A DNA stretch of 64,000 bases. It comes from Escherichia coli (GTDB lineage Bacteria > Pseudomonadota > Gammaproteobacteria > Enterobacterales > Enterobacteriaceae). Shown here piece by piece: positions 5,964 through 8,900 of the stretch (its first letter is position 1; every line of letters begins with the position of its first letter). The stretch lies in the NCBI RefSeq assembly GCF_030384885.1, contig NZ_CP128613.1. One strand, written 5' to 3'. Made by a program: the position numbers.

Positions 5964-8900
5964 TACGCGCCGTTTCCTCGTTCCAACACCCTTTCGCCCG
6001 GCAACAGCAATTACTGAAGCCTGGGAAACTCTGCGCGAAGGGTTAGAAACAACGCCGTTTCTGACGCTCACCGGCTACGGGCGGCAACTGGTGGATTTTG
6101 CCGATAAACAGGTGACGGAAATCTCCTGTCACGGGCTGGGCGCTCGGTTTCTTGCGCCAGCAACGCGCGCGGTAATTGACATCGGCGGTCAGGACAGCAA
6201 AGTGATTCAGCTTGATGATGACGGTAACCTGTGCGACTTCCTGATGAATGACAAATGCGCGGCGGGCACCGGGCGTTTCCTGGAGGTGATCTCGCGCACG
6301 CTTGGCACCAACGTCGAACAGCTCGACAGCATAACGGAAAATATCACGCCGCACGCCATCACGAGTATGTGTACAGTGTTTGCCGAATCAGAAGTGATCA
6401 GCCTGCGCTCAGCGGGCGTCGCGCCAGAAGCGATTCTCGCTGGAGTGATTAACGCGATGGCGCGGCGGAGTGCCAATTTCATTGCTCGCCTCTCCTGTGA
6501 AGCGCCGATTCTGTTTACTGGTGGCGTTAGTCATTGCCAGACGTTTGCCCGGATGTTGGAAACTCACCTGGGAATGCCGGTAAATACCCATCCTGATGCG
6601 CAATTTGCTGGCGCAATTGGCGCAGCGGTAATTGGTCAACGAGTGAGAAAACGCCGATGAAAGAGTTTTTATTTTTATTTCACTCCACGGTCGGCGTCAT
6701 ACAAACCCGCAAGGCGTTGCAGGCAGCGGGCATGACTTTTCGCGTCAGCGATATTCCCCGTGATTTACGCGGCGGCTGCGGGTTATGCATTTGGCTGACC
6801 TGTCTGCCCGGCGAGGAAATACAATGGGTGATCCCTGGGCAGACCGAAGCGATATATTGCCAGCAGGGCAGCAACTGGCAGTGCGTGGTGCATTACGATT
6901 CAGAAGCGTCAACCAGGCAATAAGATCTTTAAATATAACGCCCGGATATTCGGCTGCACATAATCCTGCATGAAGGAAGTTGTATTAAATATCTCGCCTG
7001 CTGTGAAATATTTCCCATCCACAAAATGAGCGATTTTTGATAGCACCTTGCTATTGCGCGTCTAAAATACAATATACATTATATTATACTTAAAACATAA
7101 TTATGCATAGAGAAATAAAATGATTACCGGGTGTGGTAATGATAAAGATAAATTTCAGTGTGAAGCTTATCTTTACCCCCCATGATTATTTTAGATTTAG
7201 AAGAACATTTCTTAATTCAAGGATAAAAATATGGGCTCCACATTTAACATATACGGCGATATTCTTCCAACACTCGACATGTATTCGGGACTAAAACCTT
7301 GCCATAAAAAAAGCAACCAACCATTTGACATTAACAAGGAAATTGAAACCATACAAAAACAAATTAATTATGATATAAATCATTTGAATGATGGTTTTAT
7401 TAAGCGTGTACTAAATGTTTTTATTCACCTTATCTCTAATCCCGACAATCTCGAATTAACTTTAAATCGATATTCATCAACAACAGAACAAATCATCGCC
7501 AAAACCAAAAGAAATGGTTTAAATGAGTTTGAAATTAACGATCTAAAAATAATATTTAATCGACAAGATGATAATGAAAGCGTATTAACTGTTTACCACA
7601 AAGATATAAGTCATAGTTGCAATGTTAAAACCGAGCAACTGCAGCAGTTTATTAAAATAATGGAACAAAAAGCGCAACTACCAATCTATATTGACAAGAA
7701 CAATTTGAAAGAGAGCATTTTCTCTGTTTTGCGAAATGACCCACAGCACGTAGAAAAAGAGCAATACCTTCCCTTTGATAAGTTTTTAACACATGCCTGC
7801 AAAAGTTCAAATTCATTTGAAGTGAAATTAGATGCCACTCATCAATATCGACATCTGAATAACTTCATGATTTCTTTTGACCCAGTAGAAAATCAATTAA
7901 CAATACGGGATAACAATAACGAGACTGAAACTATCTCGTTGACAAACTTACAATGGGAAAATGTGCTGCAATACTACAGAGAAAATCACCAGCAGCCAAA
8001 TATAGCAGGATCACGAAATCTCACGGATAATAGAGATAAAATAAAAAATACAATATCCACCTCTGAAATTATAGAGTGTGCCTCTCCTGAAATAAGAAAT
8101 AGCGTTCTGAACGATCTTTATAGCATTGCTAACTTCCTCCCGGACAATAATCTGACACCAAATGAGAGCTGGAAAAGATTTTGTCATACATGCGAGCGCT
8201 TTTACGTTGCTCAGAAGAGTATCACTGGAGATAAGAGTGAACGCCTTACGCGAAAACTCTCTATCTCTGACGCAGAAATTACAATGACTTTCACGATAGG
8301 TGATGTTGTTATCAATACTATTAGCACTGCTATTCCTAAAGATTCAACGGGTCAACGGTGTATCAAAGGGTTGAATTTAGCGGGAATGGATTTAACCGGC
8401 ATAGACTTGTCTAAAATGGCTCTAAGGAATGTCAATTTTAATGGCAGCATTCTTAGAAAAGCGGATTTCTCCGGTACGATCTGTGAAGGCGTGGATTTTA
8501 CAGATTGTGATCTGCGTAATGCAAACTTCGAAAATGCCACATTAGAAAATAATGATTTTCGTAAAGTTCGCCACTTGACTTATGTAAATTTCAAAAACGC
8601 AAATCTACGAAACTGTAACTTCAGCGGAAAAGTTCTCACTGGCGTTAATTTTACTGGAAGTGACCTTAGTAATGCTTATCTTGAACACATAGATTTCACA
8701 TCAGTCATTCTATATGAAACATCTGCAACATCTGCAACATCTGCAACATCTGATACTTCTAAAATACCTGAAATACCTGGATCACCTAAAATACCTGCAA
8801 CACCTCGAATACCTGGTACACCTAAAGTAATTCTTACTGGAGCAATACTAAATTATTCCGATCTATCGGATAAAGATCTTTCAGAATATGATCTTACTGG

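Follow-up and report, generated by a model that had tools for sequence, protein, structure and literature searches.

What does a small gene that begins on the stop codon of its upstream neighbor, and whose product carries a universally conserved cysteine, contribute to the enzymes encoded ahead of it? This question is raised by a 64,000-nucleotide stretch of the Escherichia coli genome (NCBI RefSeq assembly GCF_030384885.1, contig NZ_CP128613.1; hereafter the window), in which an open reading frame (ORF) of 88 codons directly follows yjiL. The initial annotation of this stretch, made from the sequence alone, regarded the ORF as a possible fourth, translationally coupled member of a yjiNML dehydratase operon, encoding a DUF3343-type protein that is easily overlooked. 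As described below, the ORF is the known gene ytiA, it forms with yjiM and yjiL a conserved three-gene cassette specifying a putative double-cubane reductase, and its product probably works in partnership with the other two. A sulfur or selenium relay centered on residue Cys41 of YtiA is the role that we tentatively favor.

The ORF is present exactly where it had been placed, at 6657–6923, with its ATG at 6657–6659 and its TAA at 6921–6923 on the plus strand, and its 88 codons specify the product MKEFLFLFHSTVGVIQTRKALQAAGMTFRVSDIPRDLRGGCGLCIWLTCLPGEEIQWVIPGQTEAIYCQQGSNWQCVVHYDSEASTRQ, in which the previously noted GGCGLC motif is read at residues 39–44 (window 6771–6788). When compared with Pfam, this protein matches PF11823 (Se_S_carrier, formerly DUF3343) at 48.4 bits (E = 6.4e-13; gathering cutoff 25) across profile positions 2–57 of 69, and no other family is matched even at E ≤ 1; the proposed DUF3343-type resemblance is thus borne out by a hidden Markov model search. 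A search of 5.8 billion proteins returned 132 homologs at E ≤ 1e-3, with identities down to approximately 54%, from Escherichia, Citrobacter, Klebsiella, Raoultella, Kosakonia, Phytobacter, Atlantibacter, and other genera. An ortholog scan limited to one genome per species, with a narrower family alignment as the query, yielded 38 loci, almost exclusively from the Enterobacterales. Intact orthologs of 78–89 amino acids occupy 36 of these 38 loci, so that the reading frame, whose lack of conservation in orthologous regions had been named as the refuting outcome, is retained in 36 species.

The substitution pattern in these orthologs is that of a translated sequence. Column entropy across the 36 orthologs amounts to 0.66, 0.57, and 1.28 at codon positions one, two, and three, respectively, the third position being the most variable, and pairwise ratios of nonsynonymous to synonymous substitution (dN/dS) of 0.08–0.36 among Escherichia, Klebsiella, and Atlantibacter indicate purifying selection. 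The constraint is weaker on ytiA than on yjiL (0.06–0.16) or yjiM (0.04–0.08), with all of these values being approximate, because dS reaches saturation in comparisons between genera. Neither Rfam nor repeat searches in the vicinity of the ORF gave a match, and promoter and terminator scans gave matches at chance level only. Because the PF11823 match, the 132 homologs, the 36 intact orthologs with their third-position bias, and the dN/dS range all converge, it is nearly certain, as far as comparative sequence analysis can establish, that ytiA is a real protein-coding gene. A chance open frame or annotation artifact without a product might be imagined, given that several other ORFs of at least 50 codons overlap ytiA in other frames (6680–6874 and 6745–6912 on the minus strand, 6785–6973 on the plus strand). 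However, such an origin is exceedingly improbable in view of the strength of the profile match, the retention of both frame and length in 36 species down to 54% identity, the position-three bias together with dN/dS below 0.4, and the invariant residues held in common with relatives that share only 19–41% identity and reside in other gene contexts.

The gene is also already known. Its ortholog in K-12 MG1655 is ytiA (b4715, YP_009518833.1), described as “uncharacterized protein YtiA,” and the same ORF is annotated in RefSeq at the same coordinates (NZ_CP027579.1) as WP_000657672.1, a “DUF3343 domain-containing protein.” Across its first 12,026 bases, the window departs from E. coli strain 2013C-4282 at two positions. 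A 901-base query that runs from the 3′ end of yjiL through the ORF into the spacer beyond it matches 5385 of 5426 complete E. coli genomes, and among the E. coli records listed, all those with a match reaching the ORF have it annotated as DUF3343, as ytiA, or as “putative Se/S carrier.” The expectation that the gene would be easy to miss therefore does not hold, ytiA being a named and annotated E. coli gene of a described Pfam family.

The junction between yjiL and ytiA displays a compact, widely shared arrangement. The TGA stop codon of yjiL (6658–6660) and the ATG of ytiA are interleaved in a common ATGA, confirming the initial reading of 6657–6660, and such an overlap between the ytiA start and the end of yjiL recurs in every one of the 36 enterobacterial species loci usable for this comparison. 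The overlap measures 4 nucleotides in 27 species, 1 nucleotide in 7, 8 nucleotides in one, and 11 nucleotides in one, with four Kluyvera values having been taken by hand from the junction sequences. At the position of the weak Shine-Dalgarno-like stretch (Table 1), most of the 38 species junctions read GAGGAG, GAGAAA, or GGGGAA; the conservation of this stretch is nonetheless ambiguous, because it also encodes the C-terminus of YjiL. Natural YjiL–YtiA fusions (P0125, P0142, and P0144) were considered as Rosetta-stone evidence and set aside, as they are fragmentary metagenomic gene calls of 217–220 amino acids and most likely represent frameshift or assembly artifacts at the overlapping stop and start codons.

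Gene order across species defines which genes travel with ytiA. It lies directly after yjiL in all 38 species loci, and in each of the 37 loci with sufficient upstream DNA, yjiL is in turn preceded by yjiM, the flanks themselves not being conserved. In Atlantibacter, for example, the cassette sits between unrelated genes, and in Yokenella, which was reached by a YjiM search, the triad is present without yjiN. The yjiN gene occurs within 6 kb in approximately 22 of the 38 loci, and its position immediately ahead of yjiM is confined to Escherichia, Kosakonia, and some Citrobacter. Other genes intervene between yjiN and yjiM in Klebsiella, Raoultella, and Phytobacter (in Klebsiella, a major facilitator superfamily gene and a DUF2164 gene); for Atlantibacter, Kluyvera, Cedecea, and Hafnia, the 6 kb around the cassette yielded no yjiN. 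Judged by gene order, the evolutionary unit is yjiM-yjiL-ytiA, with yjiN only a lineage-specific neighbor. The notion of a fourth yjiNML member thus stands for the linkage to yjiL and falls for the inclusion of yjiN.

The triad also occurs in two more distant examples on metagenomic contigs with guanine–cytosine (GC) contents of 32% and 39%, in which identity is 81% and 74% for YjiM, 64% and 59% for YjiL, and 38% and 40% for YtiA, the fastest-evolving of the three cassette proteins. A DUF3343 gene stands beside yjiL in the 38 enterobacterial species loci, in Yokenella, and in these two low-GC relatives, and is not found within 5 kb of a clostridial YjiM ortholog. In the YjiM homolog search, the best 120 matches all share at least 86% identity. 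The coordinates of the cassette and of the elements discussed here are collected in Table 1.

Table 1. Features of the yjiM-yjiL-ytiA region, in window coordinates
Feature	Position	Strand	Basis or remark
yjiN (DUF445), lineage-specific neighbor outside the conserved cassette	3336..4616	+	PF04286
yjiM, putative double-cubane-cluster protein (class II), HGD-D fold	4732..5883	+	PF06050, 409 bits; NF040772, 531 bits
yjiL, predicted ATP-dependent [4Fe-4S] electron-transfer ATPase (activase or double-cubane-cluster protein reductase)	5893..6660	+	PF01869, 255 bits; TIGR00241; RefSeq
Purine-rich, weak Shine-Dalgarno-like GAGAAA	6645..6650	+	Inside the yjiL 3′ end, 7–12 nucleotides ahead of the ATG
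ATGA start/stop overlap of ytiA and yjiL, architecture for translational coupling	6657..6660	+	Direct reading of the sequence
ytiA-type gene, 88-amino-acid DUF3343 / Se_S_carrier protein	6657..6923, stop included	+	ORF, PF11823, RefSeq coding sequence, orthologs
Conserved loop P34-R-x-L-R-G-G-C41-G42-L-C44	6756..6788	+	Alignment; Cys41 codon at 6777–6779
Divergent 3′ third of ytiA, allele class linked to the downstream island	6840..6923	+	Identity drop, frame preserved

Several individual loci merit description in their own right. The clostridial YjiM ortholog is encoded in Acetoanaerobium noterae (NZ_CP154629.1, 5001–6935), with a class-V aminotransferase gene approximately 2 kb downstream; this 2.6-Mb record is filed as a plasmid and is probably a mislabeled chromosome. 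The only two loci with a broken ytiA belong to Citrobacter amalonaticus AUH_CA_2023_1 and Enterobacter sp. EA-1, where the yjiM matches are likewise partial or of low identity, reflecting either assembly indel errors or joint decay of the cassette. Finally, a conjugative IncC plasmid of Providencia stuartii (NZ_CP142096.1, locus 4001–6815) carries a Klebsiella-type chromosomal fragment composed of a truncated yjiM, yjiL, a DUF3343 gene, and a DUF2955 gene.

If the cassette is the unit, what are the two enzymes that ytiA accompanies? With 531 bits, YjiM clears the 350-bit cutoff of NF040772, the NCBIfam equivalog named “double-cubane-cluster-containing anaerobic reductase,” whereas it fails the dehydratase equivalogs HadB (21.5 versus 750) and HadC (95 versus 700) and remains far below the cutoffs of the benzoyl-coenzyme A (CoA) reductase equivalogs. 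YjiL, encoded directly downstream, reaches 362 bits for TIGR00241, above its cutoff of 125. The cassette holds a single HGD-D gene. YjiM contains seven cysteines, at positions 40, 59, 78, 108, 273, 302, and 335, with spacings of X18, X18, X29, X164, X28, and X32; the published motif CX19CX18-19CX29CX166-170CX32-34CX32C is not matched as a literal pattern, and the seven cysteines occur in the expected order. YjiM has previously been listed as a carrier of this motif and a probable class II double-cubane [8Fe-9S] protein, with YjiL as its ATP-dependent reductase partner (Jeoung et al., PMC7317905). From family assignment and gene content, YjiM is best described as a double-cubane [8Fe-9S] cluster protein and YjiL as its ATP-driven reductase, not as a 2-hydroxyacyl-CoA dehydratase pair, because dehydratases need two paralogous subunits and the cassette encodes one. 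The “dehydratase operon” of the initial annotation is accordingly a misnomer. Database names for yjiM often still read “2-hydroxyacyl-CoA dehydratase subunit D,” and the K-12 name is “putative dehydratase subunit.”

Evidence for the expression of the cassette comes from its first gene. In O157:H7 under oxygen limitation, yjiM mRNA increases together with those of anaerobic respiration genes (PMC2241611), and the YjiM protein has been detected by proteomics. Between yjiN and yjiM, no FNR box (TTGAT-N4-ATCAA, with up to 2 mismatches) was found.

The conserved residues of YtiA offer a first indication of what it might add to this pair of enzymes. In an alignment of 39 diverse family members with 19–84% identity, all of which match PF11823 and no other family, three residues (F8, P34, and C41) do not vary at all, and L21, G42, and Y67 are almost as constant. 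Among the enterobacterial orthologs, Cys41 is kept in 36 of 36, Cys44 in 35, and Cys49 in 33. Within GGCGLC, Cys41-Gly42 alone is conserved family-wide; C-G-L-C constitutes a CxxC motif in the enterobacterial clade, and many distant members also possess a CxxC. An AlphaFold model of YtiA, built with the 39-member alignment, has a predicted local distance difference test score (pLDDT) of 91 and a predicted template modeling score (pTM) of 0.81, and exhibits a β-α-β-β-α-β-β topology. In this model, the P-R-x-L-x-x-x-C-G segment forms a coil loop, residues 33–42, that connects strands 2 and 3 and ends at Cys41.

A second indication comes from the company that the family keeps. DUF3343 proteins, typically 80–100 amino acids in size, have been proposed as selenium/sulfur chaperones, with their conserved cysteine noted, their STRING partners in Slackia including an activase and an HGD-type subunit, and no selenium-specific DUF3343 subfamily being discerned (Lin et al., 2015; PMC5322559). 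In the neighborhoods that we sampled, five distant DUF3343 genes adjoin genes for sulfur or selenium handling: YedE-type Sulf_transp genes are the neighbors of two, in one case together with TusA; another lies beside a TusA-DsrE (YedF-like) gene; another overlaps by 14 nucleotides the end of a class-V aminotransferase gene (cysteine-desulfurase/selenocysteine-lyase type) that is located after a TusA-domain gene; and another precedes YqeC, a predicted selenium-cofactor biosynthesis protein (Haft preprint, 10.1101/2022.07.06.499078). These contexts agree with those on which the chaperone proposal was founded (PMC5322559). Two further sampled contigs were too short for their neighborhoods to be read. 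The suggestion that DUF3343 proteins often accompany activase and HGD-D pairs is thus correct insofar as such co-occurrence exists, but the distant relatives sampled adjoin sulfur/selenium-trafficking genes instead. In the window, ytiA itself is preceded by yjiM and yjiL and followed by a pentapeptide-repeat gene, and the typical genes of this kind (YedE, YedF, and selenocysteine lyase) are not there. Such neighbors are a tendency of the family and do not define membership, given the statement that it has no selenium-specific subfamily (PMC5322559). From the side of the enzyme, 955 of 970 NF040772 proteins occur in SelD-encoding genomes, and a selenium link has been raised for the double-cubane enzymes in a preprint that does not mention DUF3343 (10.1101/2022.07.06.499078).

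How might these observations be joined into a mechanism? A functional partnership between YtiA and YjiM–YjiL is quite probable, because the triad persists while its flanks change, all 36 species retain the overlap, and the triad is kept even where YtiA identity is only 38–40%. In the scheme that we propose, ytiA would be expressed from the same mRNA as yjiM and yjiL, with ribosomes that terminate on yjiL most likely re-initiating at the overlapping ATG, to produce a cytoplasmic, small ferredoxin-like α/β sandwich that would present Cys41 at the end of a 10-residue loop. A chalcogen role for this protein is suggested, because distant DUF3343 genes adjoin sulfur and selenium genes, a chaperone function has been proposed for the family (PMC5322559), and NF040772 co-occurs with SelD. 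YtiA would thus act as a sulfur/selenium relay that bears a persulfide or perselenide on Cys41, with the assistance of Cys44 (CxxC) in enterobacteria, and that would give a chalcogen to YjiM or take one from it. The relay may serve cluster building or repair, or else may handle the carrier-bound substrate or product of a low-potential reduction. We advance such a relay on Cys41 in the service of YjiM tentatively and accord it a somewhat less than even chance of being correct.

The partnership could be real and the chemistry absent. YtiA may be a noncatalytic accessory of YjiM–YjiL, such as an assembly or maturation factor, a stabilizer, or a regulatory or adaptor subunit, in which Cys41 would be structural or would contact the cluster; we consider this a possible but doubtful account. 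Its appeal lies in the strict synteny and the start/stop overlap with yjiL, which favor matched synthesis, in the rapid evolution of YtiA relative to its partners, as is common in small accessory subunits, and in a ferredoxin-like fold whose weak structural neighbors are regulatory and metallochaperone domains (PII, CutA, and the UreE C-domain). The conserved loop of YtiA also lies between strands 2 and 3, which is the location of the T-loop in PII proteins. The cysteines might instead operate as a pair. As a thiol–disulfide redox protein, YtiA would use C41-x-x-C44 either to accept electrons from YjiM, as its physiological acceptor, or to donate protons and electrons, as a dithiol, to the YjiM substrate, in keeping with the CxxC nature of C-G-L-C, the presence of Cys44 in 35 of the 36 enterobacterial orthologs, and the CxxC of many distant members. 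However, Cys44 is not invariant, being replaced by Ser, Ala, or Gly in several members including a triad member (L049), neither the AlphaFold model nor Pfam gives any sign of a thioredoxin-like fold, and reduction of an ordinary disulfide does not need an ATP-driven reductase of very low potential, which would be energetically excessive for the task. Such a function is therefore unlikely.

Alternatively, the chemistry could be real and the partnership absent, with YtiA being a general selenium/sulfur trafficking protein (for instance, one that feeds SelD, YqeB/C, or tRNA modification) that shares only a transcript with yjiM and yjiL. The family contexts elsewhere, which consist of sulfur/selenium-trafficking genes unrelated to double-cubane proteins, and the clostridial YjiM ortholog without a neighboring DUF3343 gene would both be accommodated. 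Yet the triad stays together in the different enterobacterial genera, as well as in two low-GC relatives, despite changing surroundings; yjiM is also broken in both loci with a broken ytiA (poor assemblies could explain this); and hitch-hiking alone would not readily account for the overlap of start and stop codons. Taken together, these considerations render this alternative very unlikely.

A number of observations weigh against the Cys41 relay itself. Only Cys41 is universal, and Cys44 is lost in some triad members. The faster evolution of YtiA compared with YjiM and YjiL fits a loosely constrained accessory, and the clostridial YjiM ortholog, at 64% identity, has an activase and no DUF3343 gene within 5 kb. 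No solved structure related to YtiA by sequence was found, and the fold searches returned only generic ferredoxin-like domains below significance (PII, CutA, UreE C-domain, and DUF2179). The literature yielded no biochemical data, sulfur or selenium binding included, on any PF11823 member, and no experiment on E. coli ytiA, the papers listed or inspected all dealing with an unrelated Bacillus subtilis ytiA (a paralog of L31); nor did it, outside supplementary tables, which were not searched, contain a ribosome-profiling or proteomic statement on E. coli YtiA. In the acetylene reduction reported for the double-cubane-cluster protein (DCCP), the components are DCCP, its reductase (DCCP-R), Mg-ATP, and dithionite only; a third protein is not listed (PMC7317905). 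Finally, the SelD correlation is preprint-based and may only mirror an anaerobic lifestyle.

A more specific version of the Cys41 relay is speculative and quite unlikely. Here, YtiA would be the link between the DUF3343 selenium/sulfur-carrier observation and the co-occurrence of double-cubane enzymes with SelD, with Cys41 bearing a persulfide or perselenide that is delivered to, or collected from, the [8Fe-9S] cluster of YjiM. It would supply the bridging chalcogen, sulfur or selenium, or present a carrier-bound sulfur or selenium species as the true physiological substrate. If correct, this would provide the first physiological role for class II double-cubane enzymes, in low-potential sulfur or selenium chemistry. 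The selenium link of YjiM-type enzymes has so far consisted of co-occurrence statistics from a preprint only, and ytiA represents a genetically tractable handle, in E. coli, on both the role of the double-cubane enzymes and their selenium association. The analysis also replaces “2-hydroxyacyl-CoA dehydratase,” as a name for this region, by “double-cubane reductase cassette yjiM-yjiL-ytiA.”

Within E. coli, the 3′ end of ytiA has a history of its own. Identity to K-12-like ytiA is approximately 97% up to window position 6839 and then falls sharply over approximately the last 27 codons, with the frame preserved. For those of the listed E. coli genomes that are not covered over the full length, the megablast alignment extends no further than window position 6867, and at least 80% of the 901-base query is covered in only 635 of the 5385 matching genomes. 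There are two classes of E. coli YtiA protein, of 88 and 85 amino acids, and the 88-amino-acid class accompanies a low-GC island (approximately 31% GC versus approximately 54% in yjiML-ytiA). The homology breakpoint inside ytiA suggests an old recombination boundary tied to the neighboring island. The island, at 6924–9400, begins right after the ytiA stop codon, and its gene at 7231–9312 on the plus strand encodes a 693-amino-acid pentapeptide-repeat protein that is annotated as the type III secretion system effector EspX6 in O157:H7. K-12 is without the island, and yjiK follows ytiA there at a distance of 64 nucleotides.

Elsewhere in the window, at 11872–15538, the sequence diverges from its closest genome, strain 2013C-4282, inside iatD, from approximately position 12027. 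The N-terminal frame of IatD in the window ends at a stop codon at 12034–12036, and an ORF of 1210 amino acids continues in another frame from 11906, so that the region holds either a variant or a disrupted inverse-autotransporter gene. At 629–1585 on the minus strand, the window contains an intact gene for an Rpn-family recombination-promoting nuclease (YhgA-like, PF04754), the K-12 counterpart of which, rpnD, is a pseudogene.

Comparison with known systems places the cassette in context. A close counterpart of the ORF is K-12 ytiA, an ortholog in the same place after yjiL with the same 4-nucleotide overlap. Overall identity between the two proteins is 84%, and their first 61 residues differ at a single position (P50L), whereas their C-terminal thirds diverge, the 88-amino-acid window protein ending in …GSNWQCVVHYDSEASTRQ and the 85-amino-acid K-12 protein in …DGVWRCIAHYGVSPR; a low-GC island with a pentapeptide-repeat gene lies downstream of ytiA in the window and is missing from K-12. 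With respect to the PF11823 family as described (PMC5322559), YtiA passes the profile, falls within the typical size range at 88 amino acids, and carries the conserved cysteine. However, the proposed selenium/sulfur role of the family rests on neighbors such as YedF and selenocysteine lyase, whereas the neighbors of YtiA are a putative double-cubane reductase and its ATPase.

A parallel may be drawn with the sulfur carriers of the TusA/YedF type (PF01206), which are likewise small α/β proteins with one essential cysteine, encoded beside sulfur or selenium transporters and often adjacent to DUF3343 genes. They nonetheless have no sequence relationship to YtiA, and none of the 39 family members gives a PF01206 signal at E ≤ 1. 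The cysteine of TusA belongs to a CPxP motif at the N-terminus of a helix, in contrast to Cys41 of YtiA, which the model places in a loop ahead of strand 3.

The 2-hydroxyacyl-CoA dehydratases and their activators (HgdAB/HgdC, HadBC/HadI, and FldBC/FldI) resemble the cassette in pairing an enzyme of the HGD-D fold with a BcrAD_BadFG ATPase, here YjiL. They differ in being heterodimers of two HGD-D paralogs with [4Fe-4S] clusters, as opposed to the single HGD-D gene found here, and the ytiA locus is without a CoA-transferase-type gene among its annotated neighbors. Comparable too is the DCCP/DCCP-R system of Carboxydothermus hydrogenoformans (PMC7317905, PMC9351452), of which YjiM and YjiL are the apparent E. 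coli counterparts, given the NF040772 assignment, the seven cysteines, and the adjacent activase-type ATPase. YjiM belongs to class II and, unlike the C. hydrogenoformans DCCP, is without the channel-closing N-terminal helices. The published system is described as having two components, to which the enterobacterial cassette adds a third, overlapping gene, ytiA.

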